DNA from: a virus | Taxonomy: Duplodnaviria; Caudoviricetes | IMG/VR virus record: IMGVR_UViG_3300036770_007283 | Strand: one strand, 5' to 3' | Length of the DNA stretch: 64,000 nt | In this document: one piece after another, positions 21,614 to 62,548 of the stretch | Position numbering within the stretch: position 1 is the stretch's first letter | Layout of the letters: every line of letters starts with the position of its first letter | The notes under the pieces: generated by a model | Database searches by the model: none | What the model was told of the DNA's origin: nothing | What the model saw: the letters and a program-made list of their open reading frames with translations, nothing else | Translations under genes and position numbers: made by a program

Positions 21614-22897
21614 TTAAAACCCAACAAAGCTCTTTGACTTTTCTTTAATATTTTGATTAATCAAAATATCATCGTCTAAGCTCTCTTTTAAAGAATAGAT
21701 TTCTGCTAATGAGTACTGAGTTTTGTTATCATTAATCTCTACACCAATATTTTTGGCAAGCTTTTTAGCATCTTCCCTGTCTAGGGGGCCGAATTCATAT
21801 TTGGAAATCAGCCTTCCTTTTCTAAGCAGAGCTTCGTCAATACAATTGATTTCAGTATTAAAAGTTAAAATAACTTGAATATTAAAAATATCATTTAGAA
21901 TACCATCTGTAATATTTAGAAGTGTAGAAACAACGGCACTTCTAAATCCGCCATTGGAATCTCGCTTAGAGATAATAGACTCTGCATCCTCAATAATAAA
22001 AACAGATTGTTCGTCGCCAAAAGTTTCAACCATAAAGGAGTTAAAGTCTGGTGACTCTAGGCTCTCTAAAACATGCTTGGGAATAAGGACTACTCTTTTA
22101 CCTAGCTCTACCAGCTTAGGAATAATACTTCTAATGTAGTAGGTCTTACCAGTTCCAGGCAGGCCATGAAACATAACAATGCCCTTGCTTCGACTAGCGA
22201 TTCTGTTGATTAGTTTGTTGTGATAATTTTCAAACCCTTCGCCATAATGAAGATCTAAATCGTAAAGCCCTGGATGTTCTAAGTCCACATTTCTTAGAAA
22301 TAGTCCGGTGGGTGATGTAGCAATCATATCAATATGAGAAGCAGACTTAGTATGCTTAAGATAAGTGATAGTCTTTAGATTATTAACAAGTTGACTTACA
22401 ACTGTGTTAGAAGTCTTATAAATTATTGAAACATCAAAGCAAGATAAAATAGTTCCCTGAAAAGTTTCATCATCAGAAATATTGGAGTATTCGCTGGCTG
22501 GAGCGTATTCAATCTGACCTAGAGAAATAAAGATGGACTCATCACCAATCTTTAAAAGAAGCACACACCCAATTGGCAAACCACCCATAGTATGGTTTGA
22601 CATAAGATGATATACAACACCACTTTCTTTTAGGATCTTAATAAATGAATTTAGCTTGACAGGCTGAAAGAATAAAACAGATGGTGAAGAACCAAAATAT
22701 TTTTCAGCACCCAACTTAACCCAATCAGAAAATGAACACTCAACCACACTATGGTTAAAATAATCAACATCCAAGTTCTGGATACCATAGTGATTGTCCA
22801 AGAATAAGAATGGTGAATTAATCTTATCAAATACACTTACTTCGGCGGCATCTCTGTTGCGCTTGGACACCTTCACACCTCGTAATAATCTAGGCAT
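21614..22897 (-). CDS. AAA+ ATPase (BCS1-like)
   Basis: Walker A GLPGTGKT, Walker B FIIEDAE, LLNITDG, IDEALLRKGR. Confidence 0.93.
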   Translation of the reverse strand: MPRLLRGVKVSKRNRDAAEVSVFDKINSPFLFLDNHYGIQNLDVDYFNHSVVECSFSDWVKLGAEKYFGSSPSVLFFQPVKLNSFIKILKESGVVYHLMSNHTMGGLPIGCVLLLKIGDESIFISLGQIEYAPASEYSNISDDETFQGTILSCFDVSIIYKTSNTVVSQLVNNLKTITYLKHTKSASHIDMIATSPTGLFLRNVDLEHPGLYDLDLHYGEGFENYHNKLINRIASRSKGIVMFHGLPGTGKTYYIRSIIPKLVELGKRVVLIPKHVLESLESPDFNSFMVETFGDEQSVFIIEDAESIISKRDSNGGFRSAVVSTLLNITDGILNDIFNIQVILTFNTEINCIDEALLRKGRLISKYEFGPLDREDAKKLAKNIGVEINDNKTQYSLAEIYSLKESLDDDILINQNIKEKSKSFVGF

Positions 22898-24347
22898 CTT
22901 TTACCTTCCTTGTTGGAAATAAAATTACATCACGAATACTAGACTTATTTGTTAATAACATTACTAATCTATCAATTCCAATTCCTTGACCAGCAGTAGG
23001 AGGCATACCGTAAGACAAGGCTCTAATGTAGTCTTGATCAAAATACATAGCCTCATCATCACCATTAGACTTTCTAACAGACTGTAAGTTGAACCTTTCT
23101 GCTTGGTCTACTGGATCGTTTAATTCTGAAAAACCATTGGCAATTTCAAAACCATTGATAAATAACTCAAAACGATCTGTAAGTCTTGGATCATCATCAT
23201 TCCTTCTAGCTAAGGGGCTTAGTTCTGCTGGATATAGAGTAATAAAAGTTGGATTAATTAGATTTGGTTCAACAAAAAGATCAAAGACCTTTTGTTGCAA
23301 ATCACCCAAACTTCCTTCCAGATTGGCAAAACCTTTTTGATTTAGGAATGAAATAATCGAATCTTGTGACCAAGGATCTTGAACACCAGCCTCAATTAAG
23401 GATTGACAAAATGGCAAAGTGGTCCAGCTAGAAAAATCAATACACCTATCTTCATAGGTTAGATTTAAGGAGCCATTAATTTCAAGGACCAGATCATTGA
23501 TAAGTGATGTAGTAAAAGAAATTAAGTCTTGATAAGTAGCGTGGGCTTGATAAAACTCCACCATTGTAAATTCTGGATTATGCTTCTGTGAGATTCCTTC
23601 GTTTCTAAAATTCTTTCCAATCTCAAAGACTCTCTCGAATCCGCCTACGATTAACCTTTTTAGATAAAGCTCTGGAGCAATACGCATATAAAGCTCTGTA
23701 TCAAGAGCATTATGGTGCGTTTGAAATGGTTTTGCAGTTGCCCCGCCCGGAATTGTTTGAAGAATTGGTGTTTCTACTTCAACAAAACTATGATCTTCTA
23801 GGTAGTGACGGATAAACTTGATAATTTTAAAACGTAGCTCAAATGTCTTTCGTGAGTCTTGATTTACAATTAGATCAAGATATCGCATTCTATGTCTTGT
23901 TTCGATATCTGTTAGGCCAGCAACCTTATCCGGCATACCTTGCATACACTTTGAATAAAGAGAAAGCTCCTTACATTCAAAGGTTAATTCTCCGGTTCTG
24001 GTTCGCGTAAAAAAACCTGTTACAAAAATCCAATCGCCCACATCAACCTTCTTCCAGGCATGAAAAGATTCAGCAGTTACCAGATTCTTTTTTACAGATA
24101 GCTGGATTGACTCACCAGAAACATCTGCTCGGGCAAAGCCAAGATTTCCCATTTCATTTTTAAATCTAACTCTTGCAGCAAAAGTAAAAATACCATCTGC
24201 CTCCAAGGTTAGAATAGACTCTTCACGAATTGATCTAATCTGTTCTGCAATATCTTCACAGACCTTCTTTCCAGATGGATATGGATTAATTCCCGATGCT
24301 CTTAACTCTTGGAGCTTCTTTAATTGAGCAGAATCAAATTCAAACAT
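22890..24347 (-). CDS. lysS: lysyl-tRNA synthetase, class II
   Basis: OB domain; RMRYLDLI, FVEVETPILQ, YMRIAPELYLKRL, FRNEGIS..HNPEFT, YGMPPTAGQGIGIDRL. Confidence 0.98.
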   Translation of the reverse strand: MFEFDSAQLKKLQELRASGINPYPSGKKVCEDIAEQIRSIREESILTLEADGIFTFAARVRFKNEMGNLGFARADVSGESIQLSVKKNLVTAESFHAWKKVDVGDWIFVTGFFTRTRTGELTFECKELSLYSKCMQGMPDKVAGLTDIETRHRMRYLDLIVNQDSRKTFELRFKIIKFIRHYLEDHSFVEVETPILQTIPGGATAKPFQTHHNALDTELYMRIAPELYLKRLIVGGFERVFEIGKNFRNEGISQKHNPEFTMVEFYQAHATYQDLISFTTSLINDLVLEINGSLNLTYEDRCIDFSSWTTLPFCQSLIEAGVQDPWSQDSIISFLNQKGFANLEGSLGDLQQKVFDLFVEPNLINPTFITLYPAELSPLARRNDDDPRLTDRFELFINGFEIANGFSELNDPVDQAERFNLQSVRKSNGDDEAMYFDQDYIRALSYGMPPTAGQGIGIDRLVMLLTNKSSIRDVILFPTRKVKDA

Positions 24348-33581: not shown

Positions 33582-33591
33582 AAATAAGATA

Positions 33592-33745
33592 AAGTCAGGA
33601 TGGGATTTTAACCCACCTCCTCTCCTAAAAGAACGTTAGTATTGCAAATTGAAAGAAAATCAAATAAAGATTAATTTGCAATTAATTTTATATTTTGCGA
33701 GCGCTCTGTAGTTCTTTCTACTAGGTATCATTGAGCTACTGACTT
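33592..33745 (-). ncRNA. tRNA-framed structured RNA, copy 1 (154 nt)
   Basis: Acceptor AAGTCAG/CTGACTT, D-stem GCTC/GAGC, T-arm GGTGGG-TTAAAAT-CCCATC; structured insert in place of the anticodon loop. Confidence 0.75.
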
Positions 33746-34107
33746 TACTTATTGTTTAAGAATGTTCTCAAATTAAACACAATTTCTTCTTTAGCTTTAT
33801 TAGAAATAAGATTACTGTCCAAAACTTCTTCCAGCGAAGTGTCTAAAAACTTTTTCTTATTTTTCTGTTTTAACTTCCAAATAAGTTTAATATCAACAAA
33901 CTCACCAATCCCACTTGGCCAAAAAACTTTTTTAACTATCAGAAAGAATCTACTTCCACGGATGTTAAATATTTCTGCATCTGGTGAATAGGCTGGACCT
34001 ATTTTTGTTAGTACAAAAGTATTCAAACTATTTAATTCATTTATTTTCTTCTGAAATCTGTCTTGGGCATCTTCATAGCTCTCAAATAAATTGTCTAATG
34101 AAATCAT
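33745..34107 (-). CDS. C-terminal-motif paralogue family member, between the two tRNA-like RNAs
   Basis: MISLDNLF...SLEEVLDSNLISNKAKEEIVFNLRTF; start trimmed to 34107. Confidence 0.7.
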   Translation of the reverse strand: MISLDNLFESYEDAQDRFQKKINELNSLNTFVLTKIGPAYSPDAEIFNIRGSRFFLIVKKVFWPSGIGEFVDIKLIWKLKQKNKKKFLDTSLEEVLDSNLISNKAKEEIVFNLRTFLNNK

Positions 34108-34117
34108 GTTGCACCAA

Positions 34118-34281
34118 AAGCCGGGGCGGGATTTTAACCCGCCTCCTCTCCTAACTATTAGGTATATAATACAAACTGGAAGAAGCCTATCGGCTAATCT
34201 GTATCTCAAATGCTTAAAAACATAGAATCTTATGGAGCGCTCTGTAGTTCCTCCTACTAAGTATCATTGAGCTACCGGCTT
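34118..34281 (-). ncRNA. tRNA-framed structured RNA, copy 2 (164 nt)
   Basis: Acceptor AAGCCGG/CCGGCTT, D-stem GCTC/GAGC, T-arm GGCGGG-TTAAAAT-CCCGCC; compensatory changes vs copy 1. Confidence 0.75.
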
Positions 34282-34319
34282 TTTAAATGGTACCAATTTT
34301 GCTTTGGGCTTTCAAAAAA

Positions 34320-35799: not shown

Positions 35800-35869
35800 A
35801 AGAGGGTCTGGATTTCGAGCCAGAATCTCCTAGATACAACCTAGGGCTTTGAAGATTAAGCTACCCTCT
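35800..35869 (-). tRNA. atypical/pseudo tRNA with UGU (Thr) anticodon
   Basis: AGAGGGT/ACCCTCT acceptor, CCTAG-GTTGTAT-CTAGG arm, 4-bp T-stem with 8-nt loop, no D-loop GG, no CCA. Confidence 0.5.
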
Positions 35870-35932
35870 ATGATATTTATACGATAAGGTCTATACCCTT
35901 TCAATAAAAGATTAAACTTTAAAATTATATTT

Positions 35933-38900
35933 TTAAAATCCAACTCCGAACTCACCAGACTTCTGCCTGGCAAGAAGCAGTTTTGCATTTTTATAAGTTT
36001 CTTTTGCCACCTTGATTTGTTGTTGTATAGAGAAATTATCTAAAATCTTATCAATGTATTTTGATACCATATCAGGTGTAACTACGGTTCCAGTCTCAGA
36101 GATCATTCCCTTGATGGTTTCTCGGTCTTCATTTGTTAGATCAGAAATCTCAAAGGCTGCACCATATTTTCCATGAATAAAGCCAAGGATTGTTTCTGCA
36201 TGTTCTTTGTAGTTTACAACGAAACCCCTAATTAAATCTAACCACAGTTCATCAATTCCTTTTCTAATAACGTCACCAGTAGCACCTTCAAGTTTACTTA
36301 CCCACAAATCATAGTCTGATTCTTTTAGGTCTTTAACTGGCAAGAATGTCTCCAAGTAATACTTTAAGATAGACTTAGCATCTTCCTTGGACAATTCACC
36401 GACCACCATAACCTTAGCGAAGCGTCTAAGCATGGGGGTTGGAATTCTTTTTGGATGGTTTGTAGCACCCCAAATTGAAATGCCTGGATAGGCAACAACA
36501 CCATCCATTAGATTCTGGAATTCTAAGGAAAGGTTAATCTTGGATGTTGATTGGTCATCATTTAAGATCATATCAATTTCATCAATTAAAATATATACTG
36601 GACGACCAGAAGACTTATGAAGTTTAATTGCTTCATCAAACAACCTCTTTGGATTCTTTTGTGCTTCACCTAGCCAGCAGGTTAAAAAATCGGATCCTAC
36701 AGCAAAGATTGCAATGCTATCTGGATCTGAAGAAAGTGACCTCAGAACCTCGGTATTATGATTCATCATTCCGTTTGCAGCAAAGCTTTCTGCACCTGGG
36801 ACAACAAGATCATACACTGGATGCTCACCAGTGTTTTCTACTGATACGATCTTTGACCAACGATACTGTGTTGAGCCTAAAGAATCTGTGATCTCCTTTG
36901 ACTTTTGGGATGGATTTAATAAAGAGAGTAGTTGAGCAAGAGTTTCTCGACTCGGCAGAGCCTTACCAGAAGAATAATTCCAAAGCTTCTTGTGAGTAGA
37001 TCTAGGAAGCTCTCCAGATTCTGACTTTAGAATCTTCCATAGATCTTTCGAAATGGGTACTTGATCATAGTTATGGTTAGCCTTGACTTCTAATTCACTA
37101 ACTTTTGCTTGTTTTCTTGGAAGTCTAAATCCAATCTTTTGATAGAAGGACCGTGCATCATCACCATAAATATTAAGTCTCCATGCTTTTTCGGTGTGTC
37201 TAGATACTCTAGAAATAATCCCAAATGAAGTAAGCATTAGTTGAACCTGTCTAATAAGTTTTTCACTATTAGTTCCAAACTCAATTCTTTGACCATAGCT
37301 AGAGCCATCAGAGTCAAACAATCCTGACAAGTATGCTCTCCACGATTCTTTATTTCCCTCCAAAATATACTTTGGAGTTACTTTATTTGCTGCAAGTCTG
37401 CCGCAATCTGCTAGTAATTCTTTGTTTTCTGATGAAAGCTTCATAGCCCTTACAGAATATGCCTGTCCATCATACTTATATACCTTTGGTTCACAAAAGT
37501 GCTTTGAGATTAGTCCAACAACTTTTTCATTAAAGTAATCCCAATCTTGATCTCCAACGGTAATATTCATACTCTTATAAAGACCTTCTTTATTATACTC
37601 TCCATTTCCATCTCCCACGTAATAACCCAAAACATAAGCTTTGTCTGGATCAACTAGGTTTGGTCCGGCTGGAAGTTCTTCTCTTACAATTGCAACGTAA
37701 TCACCTTCTTTAATTTGATCTAATCTCTTCCAGTCTGGACCGGAATCGGTTGCTACAATTACACGGTGCTTTGCAGTTCCTTCTATTTTGAATCCAAAAC
37801 GATCTTCAATCTTAATACAAGGCTGAATACCGGAATCATAAAAGTGGCTTGATTGAGTCATTCCAATAGTAGATCTTACCCCGACCTTTATAGGATGGTA
37901 GCCATCTGAGTCAACTGGTCCTGGCTGTAGTTCTAAAATTGTTTTTAGACCACGATCAGTAAAGATCATAGTATCTCCACGAACGCACTTTCCGCATCCC
38001 TGAGGCCCTACTAACAGGACGTTTGCTTTATCTGTAGACTTAGATGGTGAGGTTGCTAAGAATAGTGGGCTCCATTTCTTTGCCTCATCCATTCCTGAAA
38101 TAAAAGTACGAACTTCATCAAAGCCACTACCCCAAATATTGTTTAAATTTACATGAGGCTTTTCACCGGGAATAATCTCAATAGCACCTGGGGACTCACC
38201 AGTAAACATATTTCCGGTTCCAATTCTACAAACATAGAATGAGTTTTCAAGAACGAAGAAGTTTCTTTCAATTACTTTTAGTTTAAGTACCTCACTTACA
38301 ATGTCCTGCACACTTTCGCCTTCTGCCATTAGGTCAGCAACCTTTTGGATGGACTTGTTTTGATGTTCTAAAGCAAACTTTTCGGTCTTAGAGAAAGCAC
38401 GCTCTGGTGGCCTTTGTGTAATCTGTGATAGATCTAGGCTTTCCACAACGTCAATAAAATCACGATGTACCTTTTTTAGGTCAACAGATAGCAATTTCCA
38501 GACAGGCTCGCCTATAATTTGCTTTAATTTAATAACTAGTCTTAGAACTGAGTCAACAGTCGGCATAGAAATTTCCGACCATCTGATTAGTTGACTTCCT
38601 GGAACTGTAATCCACTTCCAAATTTCATCATTTTTGGCGGCCTCAATCATGGCATTTGCACGATGAATTGTATAAGCGCTCAACTCATCTTTAGAATGAC
38701 CTGATTCAATTTCACCAACCTTATCTAGGTTTTCCCAAATTAAAATAGAAACGTCGGTAAGTGTAGCGGAATTCTGACCCTCATACTTACATAGTACCAT
38801 TCCATTAGAATGGCGGTGTCTTAGACGTTCATAATAATGTTCAAAATTCCTACTCTGGGCTTGAAGATATTGCTCGTATAACCTAGGAATCTTTTCTAAG

Positions 38901-39481
38901 ATTGCCAAGCCCTGCATAAAAGTTGCGCTGGCACCACGATTAATTTGCTGCTCTAAGGCAAGCCCTTTGATGGTATCCTCAGAGCCTTGCTGTAAAGAGT
39001 TAAATAGTGCCTTTACTCTTTCTTCACCCAGCTCTAGCGAAGCACCATTTAGTTGTGTAGACCATTTATTTAATGTTTCATCCAAAGAAACCATTTTAGA
39101 ACTACAAAGCAGTTCAGAGCCTTGAACCAAGGCTGAATAAATATTTACAATGTGTTCATAATGTGAAGAGATGATAACAGAAATATCAATAGGACTAGAG
39201 TTATTGGATACTACATCTTGCTGCTTATCTAAGCCGTCAAAAATCTTCTTTGCTTCCTTGCGTCTTTTGGCATACCCTTCGCCACTTACTTGCTTCCTAA
39301 ACTCCTTAGCTTGCTTAGCGATCTTTTCATATCTATCAAGATTTTCCTTCATCATAGGAAGTAGTTCGCGGATCTGACCAATCTCATCAGCTTTTGTGGC
39401 TCTAATAATATTAGCGTATTTAATTGGGTTGTCTGATGCTGTTTGACTTAGGATAACTGCCGCAAGCTCTTGAGTATCCAT
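35933..39481 (-). CDS. AAA+ ATPase (classical clade) with long helical N-terminus, intein-containing
   Basis: GPQGCGK|intein|T Walker A, ILIDEID Walker B, WGATNHP..I.....RRF. Confidence 0.93.
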   Translation of the reverse strand: MDTQELAAVILSQTASDNPIKYANIIRATKADEIGQIRELLPMMKENLDRYEKIAKQAKEFRKQVSGEGYAKRRKEAKKIFDGLDKQQDVVSNNSSPIDISVIISSHYEHIVNIYSALVQGSELLCSSKMVSLDETLNKWSTQLNGASLELGEERVKALFNSLQQGSEDTIKGLALEQQINRGASATFMQGLAILEKIPRLYEQYLQAQSRNFEHYYERLRHRHSNGMVLCKYEGQNSATLTDVSILIWENLDKVGEIESGHSKDELSAYTIHRANAMIEAAKNDEIWKWITVPGSQLIRWSEISMPTVDSVLRLVIKLKQIIGEPVWKLLSVDLKKVHRDFIDVVESLDLSQITQRPPERAFSKTEKFALEHQNKSIQKVADLMAEGESVQDIVSEVLKLKVIERNFFVLENSFYVCRIGTGNMFTGESPGAIEIIPGEKPHVNLNNIWGSGFDEVRTFISGMDEAKKWSPLFLATSPSKSTDKANVLLVGPQGCGKCVRGDTMIFTDRGLKTILELQPGPVDSDGYHPIKVGVRSTIGMTQSSHFYDSGIQPCIKIEDRFGFKIEGTAKHRVIVATDSGPDWKRLDQIKEGDYVAIVREELPAGPNLVDPDKAYVLGYYVGDGNGEYNKEGLYKSMNITVGDQDWDYFNEKVVGLISKHFCEPKVYKYDGQAYSVRAMKLSSENKELLADCGRLAANKVTPKYILEGNKESWRAYLSGLFDSDGSSYGQRIEFGTNSEKLIRQVQLMLTSFGIISRVSRHTEKAWRLNIYGDDARSFYQKIGFRLPRKQAKVSELEVKANHNYDQVPISKDLWKILKSESGELPRSTHKKLWNYSSGKALPSRETLAQLLSLLNPSQKSKEITDSLGSTQYRWSKIVSVENTGEHPVYDLVVPGAESFAANGMMNHNTEVLRSLSSDPDSIAIFAVGSDFLTCWLGEAQKNPKRLFDEAIKLHKSSGRPVYILIDEIDMILNDDQSTSKINLSLEFQNLMDGVVAYPGISIWGATNHPKRIPTPMLRRFAKVMVVGELSKEDAKSILKYYLETFLPVKDLKESDYDLWVSKLEGATGDVIRKGIDELWLDLIRGFVVNYKEHAETILGFIHGKYGAAFEISDLTNEDRETIKGMISETGTVVTPDMVSKYIDKILDNFSIQQQIKVAKETYKNAKLLLARQKSGEFGVGF
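36755..37987 (-). mobile_element. intein (411 aa) with LAGLIDADG homing endonuclease, inserted in Walker A
   Basis: CVRGDTMIFT...; YVLGYYVGDG, YLSGLFDSDG; VYDLVVPG.ESFAANGMMNHN|T. Confidence 0.97.
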
Positions 39482-42257: not shown

Positions 42258-42545
42258 TCATCTTGTTACCTTGAAATAGTTAATATTAAACAGGATATCA
42301 TCTTGAGCTTCTTTTGGAATGTTATCTAGAAACTCTTCTATCTCTACCTTTCGCCACATCGTTATTGAATCTTGTAAACTTAACCTTTGTGTCATCAACT
42401 TATAATCATCAAACCCCCAAGAATACAAGATTATCCTATAATTATCATTTGCCATAAAAGCATAGTCATTTAATCTCGAGACTTTCAATGACTTCATATT
42501 CATAAGTATCTTCCGCATATCTTGTAAGCTAGGTTTTTGATTCAT
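42258..42545 (-). CDS. C-terminal-motif paralogue family member
   Basis: Ends IEEFLDNIPKEAQDDILFNINYF. Confidence 0.75.
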   Translation of the reverse strand: MNQKPSLQDMRKILMNMKSLKVSRLNDYAFMANDNYRIILYSWGFDDYKLMTQRLSLQDSITMWRKVEIEEFLDNIPKEAQDDILFNINYFKVTR

Positions 42546-42569
42546 TGTAATCTGATGCCACTTAATATT

Positions 42570-45981: not shown

Positions 45982-46266
45982 TTACCTAAAGGCATTTAGG
46001 TTGAATATTACTTTTTCTTTTGTTTCTTCATTTAAAGAATCGAAAACTTCTTCAAACGAAACAAACCCTGAGTGAGTAAATCTATTTGGCATATCATATA
46101 TCGTTTTTTTTGAAAAAAGCAAACGACCAAAAGATGTTACGCTATAATCTGTTCCGACAATATTCCACCATGTAATTAAGGTGTAGTTGCAGCTCTCACA
46201 CCCGCAAGGTTCGTTTGGTAAAACTTTTAATACAGCATTTAGTCGTTCCATATCTTGAGGATCCAT
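45982..46266 (-). CDS. C-terminal-motif paralogue family member (CxCxxC subtype)
   Basis: CGCESC...WNIVGT; ends SFEEVFDSLNEETKEKVIFNLNAFR. Confidence 0.8.
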   Translation of the reverse strand: MDPQDMERLNAVLKVLPNEPCGCESCNYTLITWWNIVGTDYSVTSFGRLLFSKKTIYDMPNRFTHSGFVSFEEVFDSLNEETKEKVIFNLNAFR

Positions 46267-50037: not shown

Positions 50038-51138
50038 TTATTTTCTGGTTAGGTAATCATTGCCGACCAATTTATAAGCAATTCGATTTGGAATTGTGAT
50101 TGCATCTCTTCCTGCATAAAAAACTTGTTCACCATCCCAACGTAAAACAATACCTTCTCGGATGTTATCTCCGCTTAGTAAAGTTTTACCTTCTGCCATA
50201 CTGACAATAGCAGATGGAATTCCTTCACCGGCTTGCCAAATGACCCTATCTACAACAGGAACAGTTGGAATAGAAATATTCTGGCAGAAAGCTAATAACT
50301 CCTCCCAAGTCAAATATCTATTCTTATTTGAATCCCAGCAATCAAATGCTACAAATCTCGCCGTATCTTGTCCGTACTTTAAGTCTTGGACTGGACCATA
50401 GACTTCGCCATATAAAGCATACCCAGGATAATCTTTTAATTTATCTGCTAGTCCTTCCCTTTGAGCCACTTCCCACCACAGACCTCCAGTATCTTCACCT
50501 TCCGGTTCCTTCTTGAATAGGGTTCTGGATCTGGCCCAGAATTTTAATTCTCCCTGGTATGGAAGCCAACCATAACAAGCATTTGTACCATGGATCTTTT
50601 CTGTAATCCAGACCTGAGAACCATCAGGGATATACTTCCAGCCTTTACTGAGCGATTCTACATCGTACTTTGCCGTACCCAAAAGGCCATGTGGTCCGCT
50701 GGTTGGACGACCAGATTGAAAACCAAAGCGTCCCCCACTTTGAATCGGAGCAATATATTTTTTTAATTCCAAAAGTGCAGTAACTTCTCGGTTAGTTTTA
50801 AACTTCCATTCATCAGGCAATGGCACCATCAAACCACGACTGATAATGCCGCGAAGCTTTACAGTTTTAATTCTGGCATATCCATCGCTCTTTGCCATCT
50901 TCTGCATGTGGGCAAAGTAAGGATGGGACACTGGCACCATAGGGTCATTAACAGAGTCAATCCAGATACCTTGATCACCCTCTGAGAATTGACCTTTCTT
51001 TACTACGGCAAAGTTTACACCAGACCCATCGGGTGAAACTAGATCTAGTAAATCAGCATTGGGATGCTTAATTACCTTTTGAATAGTAACCACCTCTGCT
51101 AGAGGATTTGCATCGGAATATTCTTCAACAGTAAACAT
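50038..51138 (-). CDS. RNA ligase, Rnl2/DRB0094-like, with N-terminal OB (tRNA-binding-like) domain
   Basis: HPNADLL; TEKIHGTN, YGEVYG, FVAFD, REGIV, YKLV. Confidence 0.92.
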   Translation of the reverse strand: MFTVEEYSDANPLAEVVTIQKVIKHPNADLLDLVSPDGSGVNFAVVKKGQFSEGDQGIWIDSVNDPMVPVSHPYFAHMQKMAKSDGYARIKTVKLRGIISRGLMVPLPDEWKFKTNREVTALLELKKYIAPIQSGGRFGFQSGRPTSGPHGLLGTAKYDVESLSKGWKYIPDGSQVWITEKIHGTNACYGWLPYQGELKFWARSRTLFKKEPEGEDTGGLWWEVAQREGLADKLKDYPGYALYGEVYGPVQDLKYGQDTARFVAFDCWDSNKNRYLTWEELLAFCQNISIPTVPVVDRVIWQAGEGIPSAIVSMAEGKTLLSGDNIREGIVLRWDGEQVFYAGRDAITIPNRIAYKLVGNDYLTRK

Positions 51139-51139
51139 T

Positions 51140-51442
51140 TTATACTCCAAATATATCTAGGTTCCAGATTATTTTTTCCTTGATATCTTCTGGGCAAAGA
51201 TCAAAGAATTCTTCAAAAGTTACTGGCTTATATAGAAATTCAATATCTAGCTCGTTAATATGCCTTAGGTATTTTATTTTAATCCCTCCTTCTATTAGGA
51301 GGTAGACTTGAAACTTTAATTTTTGATCTTTAATATAGAAGTGATTGTAGAATTCACCAGGAGTGATAAAGTCTAAATCTGCTATTTTATCTAGGGCTTC
51401 GTAATATTTCTTGGTGTAGTCATCAGAACTATCATGACTCAT
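51140..51442 (-). CDS. C-terminal-motif paralogue family member
   Basis: TFEEFFDLCPEDIKEKIIWNLDIF. Confidence 0.8.
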   Translation of the reverse strand: MSHDSSDDYTKKYYEALDKIADLDFITPGEFYNHFYIKDQKLKFQVYLLIEGGIKIKYLRHINELDIEFLYKPVTFEEFFDLCPEDIKEKIIWNLDIFGV

Positions 51443-51626
51443 TGGAAATATCTAGATTTAGAAGCGTTTGAATTAGCTCATATTTTTTGATCGGAGGTAA
51501 AGATCTATAGTAGGAATTAATTTCTGCCGGGATTACCTTAACAGAATCATTATGATTTAGGCATGATATTGAATCATCACCCTTACAATTGGGGCAAGGT
51601 TCAAAAACATAAATATCGTAATTCAT
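51432..51626 (-). CDS. small Cys-containing protein
   Basis: CPNC...C. Confidence 0.55.
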   Translation of the reverse strand: MNYDIYVFEPCPNCKGDDSISCLNHNDSVKVIPAEINSYYRSLPPIKKYELIQTLLNLDISNES

Positions 51627-51953
51627 TTACCACAAATCCACGTATGGATTGCTTGGCCTTGTATAACCACAAATTTTATAAACCTGGCCCTTTAAGAATC
51701 CATATTGGCGATTCCATTCTGGCATAATTTTACCCTTATCTAGATTGTAGTTTTTACGCAATTTATCTAAGGTAGCCTCGCAGAACTGAGACTCCAGATC
51801 TGAAATCTTATTCATTAGAGATTCTCTTTGCTCTGGAGTGCCTGAAAAAGAACTACTCATAAGCATCTGCCTTAGGTGCCTTGAATCAGAATGAAATGAC
51901 TGCTCTAAGGTCATAGAAACTAGTTCTAGCTCCGTTTGATTATCTTGTTCCAT
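51627..51953 (-). CDS. hypothetical protein
   Basis: 108-aa ORF, GGAGG RBS. Confidence 0.7.
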   Translation of the reverse strand: MEQDNQTELELVSMTLEQSFHSDSRHLRQMLMSSSFSGTPEQRESLMNKISDLESQFCEATLDKLRKNYNLDKGKIMPEWNRQYGFLKGQVYKICGYTRPSNPYVDLW

Positions 51954-51961
51954 AATTCCTC

Positions 51962-52321
51962 CTATTTAAATAACTCGAGATTAAAAACAATCTTTTCCCT
52001 TAGATGGTCTGGAAGGAAATCGAATACTTCTTCCAGGCTATATTCGACCACCATAGTTTTTGGCATCATCGGGCATATATTGGTGAGTCGGATCTTTTGA
52101 TAGACATAAGAAGCGTAAATTACTTTTTGTGTAAGCCCTGAGATATTAGTCTTATAAGATGTTTGCTTAAACTTAACTACATCCACTGGGAGTGTAAAGC
52201 TACAAATATCACACTTACATTCAACAAATGAATCGCTTAGTAATAAAGCCTTTGCATCTTCATCTCTTTGAATTAGGTCACTTATATAGCTAACTTGTAG
52301 CTTGTTATTTATAGTTGGCAT
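51962..52321 (-). CDS. C-terminal-motif paralogue family member
   Basis: SLEEVFDFLPDHLREKIVFNLELFK. Confidence 0.8.
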   Translation of the reverse strand: MPTINNKLQVSYISDLIQRDEDAKALLLSDSFVECKCDICSFTLPVDVVKFKQTSYKTNISGLTQKVIYASYVYQKIRLTNICPMMPKTMVVEYSLEEVFDFLPDHLREKIVFNLELFK

Positions 52322-52326
52322 TTGAT

Positions 52327-52608
52327 CTACAATTCCTCTCTAGGAAGAAATTCATTCAGGTTAAAAATCAAAATATCTTTAAACTCTCCATCGACACCAT
52401 CAAAAAATTCTTCAAAGCAAATATATTGACAGTGCCTTGCAGGACTTGACCATCCACCTACTGGATAACTTACCGCATATGAAAATCCTCCATCATCTTT
52501 GGTAATCCAATATTTGGTTCCGATTATATTAAACCAAATAATATCTGATGGCTCTTCGCAACCTCCGCAATAACACTGTGCCAGTAATTCTTTTGGAAAG
52601 ATTTCCAT
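52327..52608 (-). CDS. C-terminal-motif paralogue family member (CxCxxC subtype)
   Basis: CYCGGC...WFNIIGT; CFEEFFDGVDGEFKDILIFNLNEF. Confidence 0.78.
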   Translation of the reverse strand: MEIFPKELLAQCYCGGCEEPSDIIWFNIIGTKYWITKDDGGFSYAVSYPVGGWSSPARHCQYICFEEFFDGVDGEFKDILIFNLNEFLPREEL

Positions 52609-52613
52609 TATTC

Positions 52614-52925
52614 CTACTTGAAGATATCTAAGTTGAATATAATCTTGTCCTGCCACTCTTGAGGTAGTATTTCAAACCATTCATTCATATCAATTGATTC
52701 CTGCATGATATTGCCACGATTAATGATAATAAAATATCTTTCACTTATAAAGTATCTCATACCATCATACGTAGAATCTAAACAATTTTTTCCATAAATA
52801 ACTATTCCAAAATCTGTCTTTGGAATACATAAATGGTCATATGTTACTCCGCTTTTATAAATAACAAAGCCCATATCTAGAAGTATAGCTTTGTACTCAT
52901 CGTATGTGAACTTTGTAAAATTCAT
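52614..52925 (-). CDS. C-terminal-motif paralogue family member
   Basis: DMNEWFEILPQEWQDKIIFNLDIFK. Confidence 0.8.
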   Translation of the reverse strand: MNFTKFTYDEYKAILLDMGFVIYKSGVTYDHLCIPKTDFGIVIYGKNCLDSTYDGMRYFISERYFIIINRGNIMQESIDMNEWFEILPQEWQDKIIFNLDIFK

Positions 52926-52928
52926 GCC

Positions 52929-53243
52929 TCACCGAAATAAATCTAAGTTAAATAAAATCTTTTCTTTAATATCATCAGGACACATATCAAAAAATTCTTC
53001 AAAAGGTGTGACGATATAATAGTTTGAAGAATGGTTGGATGGAATAAGATATTGAATCATTGGCCTGTTTACATCAACCTCAATAATTCTCATCCTTAGA
53101 TTCGACCCAATAAAAGAATATTGATTAGAAAACTCTCCCCTCTCAAGGAAATCTAAATTATCTAGCCGCCGATATAGTTTTGATAGAATATTTTTAGTTT
53201 TTTTCACAAGAGAATTTATATCATCAAATTCATCATCTATCAT
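52929..53243 (-). CDS. C-terminal-motif paralogue family member
   Basis: PFEEFFDMCPDDIKEKILFNLDLFR. Confidence 0.82.
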   Translation of the reverse strand: MIDDEFDDINSLVKKTKNILSKLYRRLDNLDFLERGEFSNQYSFIGSNLRMRIIEVDVNRPMIQYLIPSNHSSNYYIVTPFEEFFDMCPDDIKEKILFNLDLFR

Positions 53244-53246
53244 TTT

Positions 53247-53534
53247 TCACCTAAACATATCTAAATGAAAAGCAAAACAAGCTTGTGTTTCTGGCTTTGC
53301 AGATTCAAAAAATTCTTGGAATGTTTTGTGAGGTCGGCTTGGCAAATCCCATTGCATTATTGTAATCTTGCAACGTCGGTCTAGCGGATCTAGAGAGTTT
53401 CTCCTATCAACATAGAACATCCAATCATCACCCGCAACCTTAAAATGATTGGGCGATTCCACCAAACTCTTAAGGCAACTAATTGATTCTAAATATTCTC
53501 TAGCCTTAGAATATTCTAAGCTTTCAATCTTCAT
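53247..53534 (-). CDS. C-terminal-motif paralogue family member (MKIE subtype)
   Basis: MKIESLEY...TFQEFFESAKPETQACFAFHLDMFR. Confidence 0.82.
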   Translation of the reverse strand: MKIESLEYSKAREYLESISCLKSLVESPNHFKVAGDDWMFYVDRRNSLDPLDRRCKITIMQWDLPSRPHKTFQEFFESAKPETQACFAFHLDMFR

Positions 53535-53544
53535 AATTTATTTC

Positions 53545-53898
53545 TCACCTAAACATATCAATGTGAAAAATTAAATCAGCCTTGACTTCATCCGGTGCCA
53601 CTTCCCAAAATTCTTCAAAAGTATACATATAGCGATGCTTGGCGAAAAGCTTAGGATTCCAAAGCTTCTCTGTCAAAGATTCTTTGTAGCTTGGTGCCGG
53701 ATGTAATCCCATTATATATAGCCTATGTTTATCCTCTTGATTGTACAACTTTTGTAAACATAGTGACCAAGGATATCTACCAATGTCAATCCAGCACTCT
53801 CTTATGGTAAAATAATCATCACCAGATCCCTTAGATAAGCATGGAATCTTCAGTAAATAATCTACAGCATCTTCTAATGATAGTTTTTCAATCTTCAT
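53545..53898 (-). CDS. C-terminal-motif paralogue family member (MKIE subtype)
   Basis: MKIEKLS...TFEEFWEVAPDEVKADLIFHIDMFR. Confidence 0.82.
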   Translation of the reverse strand: MKIEKLSLEDAVDYLLKIPCLSKGSGDDYFTIRECWIDIGRYPWSLCLQKLYNQEDKHRLYIMGLHPAPSYKESLTEKLWNPKLFAKHRYMYTFEEFWEVAPDEVKADLIFHIDMFR

Positions 53899-54782
53899 AG
53901 AGAAGTCACCGTGCGTTGCGGCCAGTTAACACCAGCATAATCATTATCTGAATCCTCTCCAGAAATAGTACGAGTATCATTCCACATCAACACTCCACCA
54001 ATATAAATATTTACAGTTACATCATTAGCTGGCTGATAAACAGACCCAGGATAATCGTGAACCATTACTCTATACATTCCAGATAATGATGGCTCGGCAA
54101 TATTAATATTCTCTGGGCCTGTGCCTGGAATATCATCTATATCTAAAGCAGGATTGTCTGCACTACCAGCATTACCCCACTCCAATCCAGAACCGCCAAA
54201 TGCTGTGGTGCAGTTAGCATAATAACAATCTCCATTTGTCCTCTCGTTACCATTGGGACGAATTAAATGCAAATCCATATCATCACCGTTATGAACCCAA
54301 TACATTTCGATCCAAAGATTATCCCCAGGAACAGCATCCACAGAACAATCTACAGGATCAGAACGACGACCATCAGAGGTTTCTACAACCAATCTTGCAA
54401 TATACTGACCGGCAAGATCAGGTGTTACTTCCCGCTCCCAAGGTGATGTTGCCGCAAGAAAAGATGCCGAACCATTAGGCTGCGTTACTAATGACCAATC
54501 CCAAGTAACAATATTCATTCCTGCTGGATCATATGAATCACGACCGTAAAAGGTTGCTGTCTCAAATGGTGGTGTAACTTCAACTGGATCCACAGAGCAA
54601 ACAGCTACAGGAGAATCTCCAATAGTTTCTTCATCGGTATCTGGAATGTCTGTATCCTCGGGAATATCTATTGTAAATGCTGTATCAGAATCCTGTGTGT
54701 CCTCAGGTGGTAAGTCCTTTCCAAGATCGTAATCTGATATACAAGCTGATAATAATCCAAAAATAAAAAGTAGGTGTCGCAT
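53895..54782 (-). CDS. lipoprotein with PKD-like and YfaP-like beta domains
   Basis: Lipobox LSAC; DSYDP.G..IVTWDWSL; DMDLHL, LDIDD..GTGPENINI. Confidence 0.8.
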   Translation of the reverse strand: MRHLLFIFGLLSACISDYDLGKDLPPEDTQDSDTAFTIDIPEDTDIPDTDEETIGDSPVAVCSVDPVEVTPPFETATFYGRDSYDPAGMNIVTWDWSLVTQPNGSASFLAATSPWEREVTPDLAGQYIARLVVETSDGRRSDPVDCSVDAVPGDNLWIEMYWVHNGDDMDLHLIRPNGNERTNGDCYYANCTTAFGGSGLEWGNAGSADNPALDIDDIPGTGPENINIAEPSLSGMYRVMVHDYPGSVYQPANDVTVNIYIGGVLMWNDTRTISGEDSDNDYAGVNWPQRTVTSL

Positions 54783-54829
54783 TAATTTCTCCTATGATAT
54801 ATATATCATAATTAGCAGCCTGCATCATG

Positions 54830-55105
54830 TTAACGAAACATATCAAGGTGAAAAAGCATCTCCTGCTGAACCTCTAATGGGGCTATATCAATAAATTCTG
54901 CAAAAGATACTCTACGCCCATTAGTGTTTAAAATCTTAAGCTGACACTTATAAATATAATTATTATAAACAATTGGCACCAAAATGAACCACCAATCTGT
55001 TCCCCTAATCCTAAATGTATTCGAGTTTTGTTTCATATTTTCAAAAATTGAAATGCTTCTCAAAAACTGATTTGCAACATCAATATACAACTTTTCAATT
55101 TTCAT
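54830..55105 (-). CDS. C-terminal-motif paralogue family member (MKIE subtype)
   Basis: SFAEFIDIAPLEVQQEMLFHLDMFR. Confidence 0.82.
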   Translation of the reverse strand: MKIEKLYIDVANQFLRSISIFENMKQNSNTFRIRGTDWWFILVPIVYNNYIYKCQLKILNTNGRRVSFAEFIDIAPLEVQQEMLFHLDMFR

Positions 55106-55108
55106 AAG

Positions 55109-55372
55109 TCACCTAAATAGATCTAAATGATAAACTATTTTATCCTTGATGGTTTCCGGCAATTCATCAAAAACTTTTTCGAATGTAAAATTATCGTTAA
55201 AATTAACCGTAGAGATAAATTCTCCTTGCCCCATACCAGAATCATTTTTGAAAACATAAAATACATAATAAGTGCCGGTAACATAATATGAGATGTAATT
55301 TTTATTACGCAATCCTCTTGGTGTTAGAAAGTCTAATTCATCAAGATTTCTAACAAGATCTTCGTAGCTCAT
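55109..55372 (-). CDS. C-terminal-motif paralogue family member
   Basis: TFEKVFDELPETIKDKIVYHLDLFR. Confidence 0.82.
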   Translation of the reverse strand: MSYEDLVRNLDELDFLTPRGLRNKNYISYYVTGTYYVFYVFKNDSGMGQGEFISTVNFNDNFTFEKVFDELPETIKDKIVYHLDLFR

Positions 55373-55380
55373 AATTCACC

Positions 55381-55671
55381 TCACCGAAATAAATCAAAAT
55401 TGAAAAGAAGATCTTCCCTAGATCCTTCATCACAACTATTAAAAACTTCCTCAAAGGTTACAATGCTTCTATGCTGAGTTTTCCAATCCATAAATAAAAC
55501 CATACATTTACTTCCTTTAGGCGTCCAATATTTGTTTTCAGGCCCTACCCAAATAACATATTTGGTTTCCCCAACTCTAAAGTGCTGATCCGATGTTGGA
55601 GTTTCTTTAAAGCAGGAAATTGATTTCACAGCAGCCAAAGCTTCTTCGTAGGATAACTTATCAATCTTCAT
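55381..55671 (-). CDS. C-terminal-motif paralogue family member (MKID subtype)
   Basis: TFEEVFNSCDEGSREDLLFNFDLFR. Confidence 0.82.
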   Translation of the reverse strand: MKIDKLSYEEALAAVKSISCFKETPTSDQHFRVGETKYVIWVGPENKYWTPKGSKCMVLFMDWKTQHRSIVTFEEVFNSCDEGSREDLLFNFDLFR

Positions 55672-55674
55672 CCA

Positions 55675-55971
55675 TCACCTAAACATATCAATGTGAAAAA
55701 GAAATTCTTCTTGAATATGCTCGGGAACAGACTCTAAAAAATCTTCAAAATCTATACCGTATGCTACTCCACCGTCGTCATACGTTAGATTAATTATAAA
55801 CTTACAGCAAAACAATCCATTCATCGACGGAATCCTTACAACAATATTATAATTTTCCGCGCCAACTACTATAAACTGTTTCTCCAGAAGGTAAGAACCA
55901 ACTGGCTTTAAGCAGGATAGCTGAGAAAGAAAACTCTCTGCTTCGTTAATACTCATATCTTCAATCTTCAT
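55675..55971 (-). CDS. C-terminal-motif paralogue family member (MKIE subtype)
   Basis: DFEDFLESVPEHIQEEFLFHIDMFR. Confidence 0.82.
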   Translation of the reverse strand: MKIEDMSINEAESFLSQLSCLKPVGSYLLEKQFIVVGAENYNIVVRIPSMNGLFCCKFIINLTYDDGGVAYGIDFEDFLESVPEHIQEEFLFHIDMFR

Positions 55972-61267: not shown

Positions 61268-62548
61268 AAAGAAAACTCTCCACTTTAGGGGAGGGATGAA
61301 TTTTTACATTTTTCTACTAATATTGTAAATATAGGTATGCCAACAACTCAGAAAGCATTTAAATTCAGAATCTACCCCACCAAAAATCAGCAAACATTTC
61401 TTGCTAAGCATTTTGGTGCGGTTAGATTTGTTTACAATTTCTTTCTGAATAAGAAAAAAGAAGAATATTTAAATAATAAAAAGACTACAAGCTATTTTGA
61501 TGATGCCAAAGCCCTTACTCAGTTAAAGTCTGAAGAAAAATATTTTTGGTTATATGAAATCAATTCTCAAACCCTGCAGAGTTCACTCAGAAATTTAGAG
61601 TCCTCCTACTTAAATTTCTTCCGTGGTAATGCCAAATTCCCAAAATTTCATTCTAAAAAAAATAAACAATGCTTTAAAATTCCTCAAAACTTCTCTATAG
61701 AAGATGGATTTCTTTATATCCCAAAATTAAAAGAAGGAATCAAAATAATGCTCCACCAGAAGTTGCTAGGGAAAGCAATTTCCTGTCACGTTTCTAAGTC
61801 AACGACAGGCAAATATTTTGTTTCAATCCTTTGCGAGCTAGACCAACCACATTTACCAAGGGTAGATTCTGCAGTGGGAATAGATTTGGGATTGAAAAGT
61901 TTGTTAGTTGAATCAAATGGCAATGTTGCTCCATCTATAAAAACTAATGAAAGGTTCCAAAAGAGAAAGGCTTTTGCCCAAAGGAATCTTGCTAAAAAGA
62001 AAATCGGATCAAATAATAGGGCTAAAAGCAGGGCCATTTTAGCAAAGCATTTTGAAAAAGAGGTTAATAAAAGGACAGATTATCTTCATAAGTTAAGTAG
62101 GCAATTAGTTAACGAAAACCAAGTTATAATTGCTGAAACACTTGCTGTAAAAAACATGATGCAAAATAGTTCCCTAGCCAAAGCTATAGGAGAGGTATCT
62201 TGGGGGGAGCTGCTGAGGCAAATTCAATATAAATCTGAATGGGCAGGGAGAGCCTTTCACAAAATAGATAGGTTTTTCCCATCAAGCAAAGCCTGTAATA
62301 ACTGCAAGTTTGTGGTTGACCATCTGCCTTTAGATGTGAGGAATTGGGATTGTCCTAGTTGCAAAAGTAGCCTGGATAGGGATTTAAATGCAGCAAAAAA
62401 TATATTAGAAAAGGGTCTTGTAGACTTAGGTTTGCAGGACATCTACGGGGTTTCGGAACGAAATCCTAAGTCAAAAACTTCTGGAGGCGATCCCGTTAGG
62501 GATGTCTAAGAAAGAAGAGGCCCTCCCTTAAAAGGGAGGGTAGTTCAC
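61268..62548 (+). mobile_element. IS200/IS605-family TnpB-only (IS1341-like) element
   Basis: Left-end hairpin CTCTCC..GGAGGG after TTTAA; right-end hairpin CCCTCCC-TTAAAA-GGGAGGG followed by TAGTTCAC; no tnpA; ends approximate. Confidence 0.8.
61337..62509 (+). CDS. tnpB: RNA-guided endonuclease TnpB
   Basis: HTH KFRIYP...RFVYN; RuvC GIDLG, AETL, DRDLNAAKNI; zinc finger C..C...C..C. Confidence 0.96.
   Translation: MPTTQKAFKFRIYPTKNQQTFLAKHFGAVRFVYNFFLNKKKEEYLNNKKTTSYFDDAKALTQLKSEEKYFWLYEINSQTLQSSLRNLESSYLNFFRGNAKFPKFHSKKNKQCFKIPQNFSIEDGFLYIPKLKEGIKIMLHQKLLGKAISCHVSKSTTGKYFVSILCELDQPHLPRVDSAVGIDLGLKSLLVESNGNVAPSIKTNERFQKRKAFAQRNLAKKKIGSNNRAKSRAILAKHFEKEVNKRTDYLHKLSRQLVNENQVIIAETLAVKNMMQNSSLAKAIGEVSWGELLRQIQYKSEWAGRAFHKIDRFFPSSKACNNCKFVVDHLPLDVRNWDCPSCKSSLDRDLNAAKNILEKGLVDLGLQDIYGVSERNPKSKTSGGDPVRDV

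Follow-up and report, generated by a model that had tools for sequence, protein, structure and literature searches.

The nearest functional analogues of the RNAs described here are the species 1 and 2 RNAs of bacteriophage T4 (rnaC and rnaD), small stable phage RNAs of 139 and 119 nt that are encoded in or beside a tRNA cluster and for which, to our knowledge, no function is known. In rnaC a terminal helix and a canonical T-arm are retained, while large hairpins replace the rest of the tRNA. A comparable reuse of the tRNA frame is found in two minus-strand elements, copy 1 and copy 2, of a 64,000-nucleotide stretch of viral DNA (hereafter the window; IMG/VR record IMGVR_UViG_3300036770_007283, Duplodnaviria, Caudoviricetes), which flank a 120-aa gene on the same strand, ORF120. 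These elements are members of a real and conserved family of tRNA-derived structured RNAs, so far undescribed, whose tertiary contact covaries. Unlike the family, rnaC has a UUCGAAU T-loop, and its fold contains neither a tRNA-type D-stem nor a D-loop hairpin nor a kiss between such a hairpin and a bulge. T4 positions 69000-76000 gave no match at E ≤ 1 to R1, the covariance model of the family, and the folds differ.

In the tRNA-like domain of tmRNA, too, the 5' and 3' ends come together in an acceptor/T-arm stack, while other structure, pseudoknots among it, takes the place of the anticodon arm. The family differs from tmRNA by G3-C70 (10 of 11 sequences) instead of G3-U70, by a full D-stem and by its length of only 104-191 nt. 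No tag reading frame of the tmRNA type was identified in it, no systematic search for one having been made. The bacterial YrlA (a tRNA-like Y RNA), the mammalian mascRNA and the TMERs of MHV68 are likewise non-decoding RNAs that reuse the tRNA fold. Both mascRNA and the TMERs are released by RNase P together with RNase Z, whereas both ends of YrlA lie in its Ro-binding stem, not in an acceptor. For the MALAT1-mascRNA precursor, pairing between leader and trailer has been described (PMC8457004). In contrast to the family, none of the three is known to have an insert that kisses a D-loop hairpin, and an Rfam search with the family was negative. The phi29 pRNA offers a parallel for the contact itself: the complementarity of two loops of this one phage RNA covaries between related phages. 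However, pRNA lacks a tRNA core and pairs its loops from one molecule to the next, making a ring on the portal, and the gene context of the family is translation, not packaging. Finally, a 13-bp acceptor/T-stem stack as in the family is known from tRNA-Sec (PMC7609411). The family splits this stack 7+6 rather than 8+5 or 9+4, and it has no 6-bp D-stem and no UCA anticodon.

Two elements outside known RNA classes

The initial annotation of the window, made from the letters and their open reading frames alone, had proposed that the two elements represent an undescribed class of phage tRNA mimics. This proposal is supported by negative results with Rfam 15 and ARAGORN together with strong covariation among homologues. 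Most structural details of that reading agree with the sequence as well. Coordinates, minus strand and lengths (154 and 164 nt) are correct (Table 1), and copy 1 begins on the last base of the ORF120 stop codon. Both copies, which are 79% identical to each other, contain a 7-bp acceptor, U8-A9, a GCUC/GAGC D-stem and a 6-bp T-stem with a UUAAAAU loop, and neither encodes CCA. The acceptor and T-stem differences between them are compensatory. D-stem and T-arm are separated by 75-85 nt in both window copies, and the 9-10-bp stem, the inner 4-bp hairpin and the 3' pyrimidine bulge are present in each. When each copy was folded as a single sequence, its terminal helix, T-arm, long stem and inner hairpin were recovered. 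The 19-nt T-arm motif has two occurrences in the window, where chance would give 0.02.

Checks of both copies with Rfam and ARAGORN recognised no known family. ARAGORN called neither element as a tRNA or tmRNA, and found three ordinary tRNAs in the window. In Rfam 15, no family reached its gathering score for either copy, and only noise appeared at E ≤ 10. The tRNA family RF00005 matched neither copy, nor the homologues on L023, L032, L037, L038, L039 and L041, nor the partial one on L036, be it at the gathering score or at E ≤ 10; tmRNA scored 7.1 bits against a cut-off of 47 bits. Taken part by part, the RNA has the acceptor stem, U8, 4-bp D-stem and T-arm with 7-nt loop of a canonical tRNA, yet its T-stem has 6 bp and position 56 is A or U. 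The canonical 5-bp anticodon stem with a 7-nt anticodon loop is missing; instead, a stem of 3-5 bp opens into 24-110 nt. What sets the family apart is the combination of a tRNA core with a D-loop hairpin whose loop pairs with a pyrimidine stretch on the anticodon side. This combination is found in both window copies, which score 135-157 bits with model R1.

Homologues were taken from short metagenomic contigs that carry ORF120 relatives. On nine of these contigs (L022, L023, L025, L032, L035, L037, L038, L039 and L040), a full-length RNA lies directly upstream of the ORF120 homologue; L024 is identical to L023, and L033 and L034 are identical to L032. The copies on L026 and L036 are 5'-truncated at the contig end, and L041 carries a short form of 104 nt. 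From the source sample come two further contigs, of 2028 and 1819 nt, whose match to the RNAs (window 33591-33746 and 34116-34285) is limited to the conserved 5' and 3' parts. Their inserts of 102-103 nt differ, which indicates that further variants exist in co-occurring related phages. Exact-motif scans of IMG/VR, JGI metagenome contigs and GTDB genomes returned only chance matches or ordinary tRNAs, a blastn search of 50,697 cultured phage records did not find a homologue, and an ORF120 profile search of IMG/VR yielded no related locus.

Covariation and the kissing contact

We aligned 11 full-length sequences with MAFFT without the use of structure (alignment A4) and then counted pairs of a hand-written structure. 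Standard pairs were found in 94.1% of 494 pair cells (shuffled mean 85.2%), and 24 of the 45 pairs showed changes on both sides (shuffled mean 11.7); for neither measure did any of 500 shuffles reach the observed value. When partners were slid by 1-3 columns, pairing dropped to 31-49%. Compensatory pairs were distributed over the acceptor (5 of 7), the D-loop hairpin (2/4), the anticodon stem (1/5), the long stem (5/9), the inner hairpin (3/4) and the T-stem (4/6, including the sixth pair, which changes from G-C to A-U). The sequence of the D-stem is invariant across the alignment, and helices 1, 2 and 8 are 99-100% paired. Many of the G-U pairs fit the minus strand alone.

The most distinctive feature of the family is a contact that was absent from the initial annotation. 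In all 11 sequences, the 6-nt loop of the D-loop hairpin (columns 28-33) is complementary to the 6-nt pyrimidine bulge (columns 131-136), which separates the inner hairpin from the 3' strand of the long stem. All 66 cells of this kiss are paired, 64 of them as Watson-Crick pairs, and four of its six pairs show double changes. There are eight distinct loop/bulge combinations, for example GGAGGA/UCUUCC in copy 2 and GAAAGA/UCUUUC in copy 1, and further GGGAGA/UCUCCC, GGAGGA/UCCUCC, GAGAGA/UCUCUC and GGAAGG/CCUUCC. After permutation of the bulges among the sequences, none of 20000 trials reached 64 Watson-Crick pairs (maximum 62). The short form of L041 lacks the long stem and keeps the kiss, between GAAAG of the D-hairpin loop and CUUUC of the 24-nt loop on its anticodon side. 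Thus it is the kiss that forms the conserved centre of the elaboration, with the long stem as an addition. As insert and D-loop hairpin covary, both are parts of the working molecule. The covariation is compatible with loop-bulge pairing in cis or in trans alike. Judged from tRNA geometry, the long stem of 9-10 bp, about as long as D-stem plus anticodon stem, could run back along the arm and bring the bulge to the D-loop hairpin. Mimicry of the Shine-Dalgarno (SD)/anti-SD interaction by the kiss was considered and discarded, because copy 1 and L038 use GAAAGA and GAGAGA.

The relatives also revised several details of the structure. The D-loop hairpin pairs in the register UAGN/NCUA (columns 23-26 with 34-37), which is 100% paired and shows compensatory changes. 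This is two columns upstream of the GUAG/CUAC register first proposed, which is 70.5% paired in relatives. The reported lack of a D-loop GG holds for the window copies but not for the relatives, five of whose nine full-length sequences have AAUGG. Likewise, the CUAA/UUAG hairpin is restricted to the window copies, and relatives have another small hairpin with a UCUU-containing loop. In most relatives the closing stem, read as CUC/GAG, has 4-5 bp with the sequence CUCC/GGAG. The terminal helix extends past pair 1/72 by 8-15 bp in copy 1 and one sublineage. As a side observation, nine of the 11 sequences contain the motif AUCUUU(U)A in the 3' part of the insert (A4 columns ~150-158), usually within the loop of a small hairpin that itself varies. 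Copy 2 lacks the motif in this form, and we found no pairing partner for it.

Within the tRNA core, U8, A9, A14 and G18 are conserved (the first three invariantly), together with the pairs G10-C25, C11-G24, U12-A23 and C13-G22. The variable loop is purine-rich, with AGGA or GGGA in 10 of the 11 sequences. In class I tRNAs such as tRNA-Phe, these core residues build the base triples, and their conservation indicates selection for an L-shape. At the outer elbow, R19/A56 or A19/U56 stands in place of the G19-C56 pair. Covariation of the G19-C56 type was looked for and rejected, as changes at positions 19 and 56 do not follow Watson-Crick pairing. Acceptor sequence, 1-72 pair and discriminator vary; hence aminoacylation identity is not conserved. 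A role as a substrate of lysyl-tRNA synthetase (LysRS) was also dismissed, there being no UUU anticodon and no conserved A73.

Proposed processing and candidate roles

As the leading model, held with moderate confidence, we propose that a clade of jumbo phages carries this RNA as a tRNA mimic that is processed, acts in trans and does not decode. It would be co-transcribed with the neighbouring small minus-strand genes and excised by host enzymes, with RNase P acting at the 5' end and endo- and exonucleases at the 3' end, before addition of CCA. The anticodon stem CUCC/GGAG opens into the 24-110-nt module, whose kiss would close the anticodon side back onto the elbow. The resulting L-shaped particle would be stable and accumulate, barred from ribosomal decoding and without an anticodon loop that could be cleaved. 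It may then act in trans as a decoy or scaffold for a protein that reads acceptor and elbow, but not the anticodon.

Excision by tRNA-processing enzymes is suggested by the loci on the more distant relatives L036 and L041, where 3-4 nt separate the end of the RNA from a genuine tRNA with anticodon CUA (L036:31-108; L041:2599-2673). At this distance, the RNA lies inside a tRNA transcription and processing unit. A CUA anticodon is that of an amber suppressor (ARAGORN labels it Pyl), and this tRNA hints at TAG recoding in the phages of L036 and L041. Processing in the manner of a tRNA also fits the conserved block around the RNA, with its tRNA-Thr, tRNA-Ser, peptide deformylase and LysRS genes. 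Copy 1 further points to autonomy from a downstream gene, as no gene follows it on its strand. Promoter-like sites were no commoner than in shuffles (12 versus 14.6), so that a -10-like box just upstream of copy 2 is not evidence. Four observations weigh against the leading model. Given the replaced G19-C56 pair, elbow-reading enzymes might not accept the RNA. The acceptor/T stack has 13 bp rather than 12. The helix that extends beyond 1/72 in copy 1 and one sublineage fits RNase P poorly and suggests RNase III or a role in cis. Finally, the family is rare, with about 13 loci and none in IMG/VR, JGI contigs, GTDB or cultured phages.

A role in cis is possible, although we rate it well below the proposed mimic. 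The fold would then be a leader, the 5' untranslated region of the ORF120 mRNA, whose closing helix hides the ribosome-binding site until it is opened by an RNase P or RNase III cut or by a tRNA-recognising factor; it may also protect the mRNA end. The nine full-length close relatives, L026 and copy 2 all have the RNA directly in front of ORF120, 8-20 nt from its ATG. In L023, L032 and L038, leader and trailer extend the terminal helix by 9-15 bp that take in the GGAG of the ORF120 ribosome-binding site, which exceeds the pairing of shuffled leaders (p ≤ 0.01). One compensatory change, CUCC:GGAG elsewhere versus UACC:GGUG in copy 2, fits the same picture. However, leader-trailer pairing was not significant against shuffled leaders in six relatives (L022, L035, L037, L039, L040 and L041) and was marginal in copy 2 (p about 0.07). 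Copy 1, with an extended terminal helix of its own (p = 0.002), has nothing downstream on its strand to regulate, and the next gene in L036 and L041 is the tRNA instead of an open reading frame. Moreover, a tRNA core with a kiss is far more elaborate than SD occlusion requires. This uneven distribution indicates that SD occlusion is a lineage-specific addition and not the defining function.

More speculatively, and in our view rather doubtfully, the RNA may be a mimic whose anticodon side is sealed by the kiss, so that only its acceptor-elbow face is shown. As an anti-defence decoy or sponge it could then capture host factors by which tRNA acceptor ends or elbows are attacked or sensed, or else it could be a self-assembling particle, and some lineages may have co-opted it to gate downstream translation.

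It is unlikely that the loop-bulge pairing is intermolecular and builds dimers, rings or a larger particle, possibly with ORF120. The perfect loop-bulge covariation is equally explained by pairing in trans, and the two window copies carry different pairing codes (GGAGGA/UCUUCC versus GAAAGA/UCUUUC). Yet tRNA geometry would suit an intramolecular fold-back, the flexible 24-nt loop of the short L041 form can reach back too, and packaging genes are not in the neighbourhood.

Still less probable is an intron-bearing tRNA gene, whose insert, perhaps together with the D-loop hairpin, would be removed by splicing to leave a decoding tRNA. The intact tRNA core, an insert at the usual place of anticodon-loop introns and the phage-encoded RNA ligase speak for it. 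The ligase with its OB domain, to which the initial annotation had drawn attention, does exist, but it lies 16 kb away and we found no evidence linking the element to it. With introns allowed, ARAGORN made no call in the 11 sequences at the default threshold; at 80% stringency it returned nine anticodon types (10 distinct triplets) with differing intron sites. No anticodon is conserved across the family, and the sequence beside the anticodon stem varies. Without a common anticodon or intron site, a spliced decoding tRNA is unlikely, and the same holds given that the insert covaries with the D-loop hairpin and that a 104-nt form with a 24-nt loop exists. In addition, an insert of 24-110 nt is too short for a group I intron, and bacteria are not known to have the bulge-helix-bulge endonuclease.

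Decayed tRNA duplicates or terminators without a function of their own are practically untenable: although the copies are AT-rich and copy 1 is followed by a U-rich tract and, 66 nt downstream, a terminator-like hairpin, compensatory changes in seven of eight helices, between phages whose flanking protein is only 43-64% identical, are incompatible with neutral decay.

Gene neighbourhood and origin of copy 1

The window belongs to a jumbo phage. Among contigs with ORF120, the longest measures ~252.7 kb and originates from a subsurface metagenome. Recognised genes in the window encode a phage lysozyme, VanY, an S49 protease, UvdE, TnpB, the OB-domain RNA ligase, LysRS and an intein-bearing AAA protein (Table 1).

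Table 1. Positions of the two RNA elements, their parts and neighbouring features in the window
Feature	Position	Strand	Remarks
Copy 2, 164 nt	34118..34281	-	between ORF128 and ORF120, ancestral position; covariance model score 156.9 bits
Copy 2 acceptor	34281..34275 / 34124..34118	-	
Copy 2 D-stem	34272..34269 / 34242..34239	-	
Copy 2 D-loop hairpin	34245..34259	-	stem UAGU/ACUA; purine loop GGAGGA = 34254..34249
Copy 2 long stem, 9 bp	34169..34204	-	encloses inner 4-bp hairpin and bulge
Copy 2 pyrimidine bulge UCUUCC	34178..34183	-	kissing partner of D-hairpin loop 34254..34249
Copy 2 T-arm	34143..34125	-	
Copy 2 trailer	34108..34117	-	weak ORF120 ribosome-binding site GGUG; can pair with leader UACC 34296..34293
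ORF120, conserved small protein	33745..34107	-	directly downstream of RNA in nine full-length relatives and L026
Copy 1, 154 nt	33592..33745	-	extra copy between ORF120 stop codon and converging gene; 134.9 bits
Copy 1 acceptor	33745..33739 / 33598..33592	-	
Copy 1 D-loop hairpin	33709..33723	-	loop GAAAGA(A), 33718..33713, pairs with bulge 33656..33651
Copy 1 pyrimidine bulge (U)UCUUUC	33651..33656	-	kissing partner
Copy 1 T-arm	33617..33599	-	
Lysyl-tRNA synthetase	22890-24347	-	full length; NCBIfam lysS 566 bits
tRNA-Thr(UGU)-like gene	35800-35870	-	71 nt
AAA ATPase	35933-39481	-	split by intein
ORF120 paralogues	51143-55971, 42261-42569, 45985-46266	-	at least 10
RNA ligase with OB domain	50038-51150		
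TnpB gene	61337-62509	+	IS605 OrfB / Cas12f-like

Copy 1 is a lineage-specific insertion: a downstream second copy is not present in any of the relatives above. Alignment of window 33592-33790 with L037:3320-3560, and also with L026, places an insertion of ~190 nt that replaces the overlap between ORF120 and the converging gene and shortens the latter to 122 aa, compared with 133 aa. Copy 1 has an acceptor and T-stem like those of the L023/L025 sublineage and a long stem like that of L022/L026, which suggests recombination between phages.

Copy 2 follows the 128-aa ORF128, and copy 1 is followed by the converging gene. In relatives the gene order is kept, with a DUF1289 protein, ORF128, the RNA, ORF120, the converging ORF133 and ORF146 and, further on, peptide deformylase, LysRS and the AAA gene. 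In the long-contig relatives L037-L040, LysRS lies ~4-5 kb downstream of the RNA beside peptide deformylase and the AAA ATPase. Genes for tRNA-Thr(UGU) and tRNA-Ser(GCU) are found a few kb upstream of the RNA in the conserved block. Most of the ORF120 paralogues in the window match the profile only in the C-terminal ~30 residues, and the RNA adjoins ORF120 and none of them. The AlphaFold (AF2) model of ORF120 (pLDDT 87.5) had no convincing match in the PDB or the AlphaFold DB clusters (best E ~0.01, TM < 0.5). Searches of ORF120, ORF128 and the converging gene against Pfam, PHROGs and NCBIfam gave nothing informative, and a protein search with ORF128 matched only itself. The intein that splits the AAA ATPase contains a LAGLIDADG homing endonuclease domain; the L039 orthologue of 770 aa shows no intein domain.

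The tRNA-Thr(UGU)-like gene of the window has a 7-bp acceptor, a 5-bp anticodon stem, no D-loop GG and an 8-nt T-loop. It was missed by ARAGORN and at the Rfam gathering score, and it matches R1 weakly (E 0.019). Its counterpart L038:464-533 passes the Rfam tRNA model with 36.1 bits, and in L035 and L039 ARAGORN called a tRNA-Thr(UGU) at the syntenic site. Next to the family RNA on L041, on its upstream side, lies a second, different tRNA-like element (L041:2372-2488; fold z = -4.0). Its terminal helix has 9 bp, its T-arm (UUCGAGU) is canonical, and its D region contains an inserted 10-bp hairpin. Insertions in the D-loop may recur within this phage group.

It is uncommon for a structured RNA family of this size to show clear covariation yet be missing from Rfam. 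The present one adds a new way of remodelling the tRNA fold, in which an insertion in the variable pocket of the D-loop docks onto a module that replaces the anticodon loop. Small and modular, with a programmable tertiary contact of 6 bp, the RNA is attractive for structural study. The family also provides a comparative handle on the role of non-decoding tRNA-like RNAs in large phages. Lying in a translation-related block with tRNAs, peptide deformylase and LysRS, it may bear on how jumbo phages of this clade manipulate or protect the tRNA pool.

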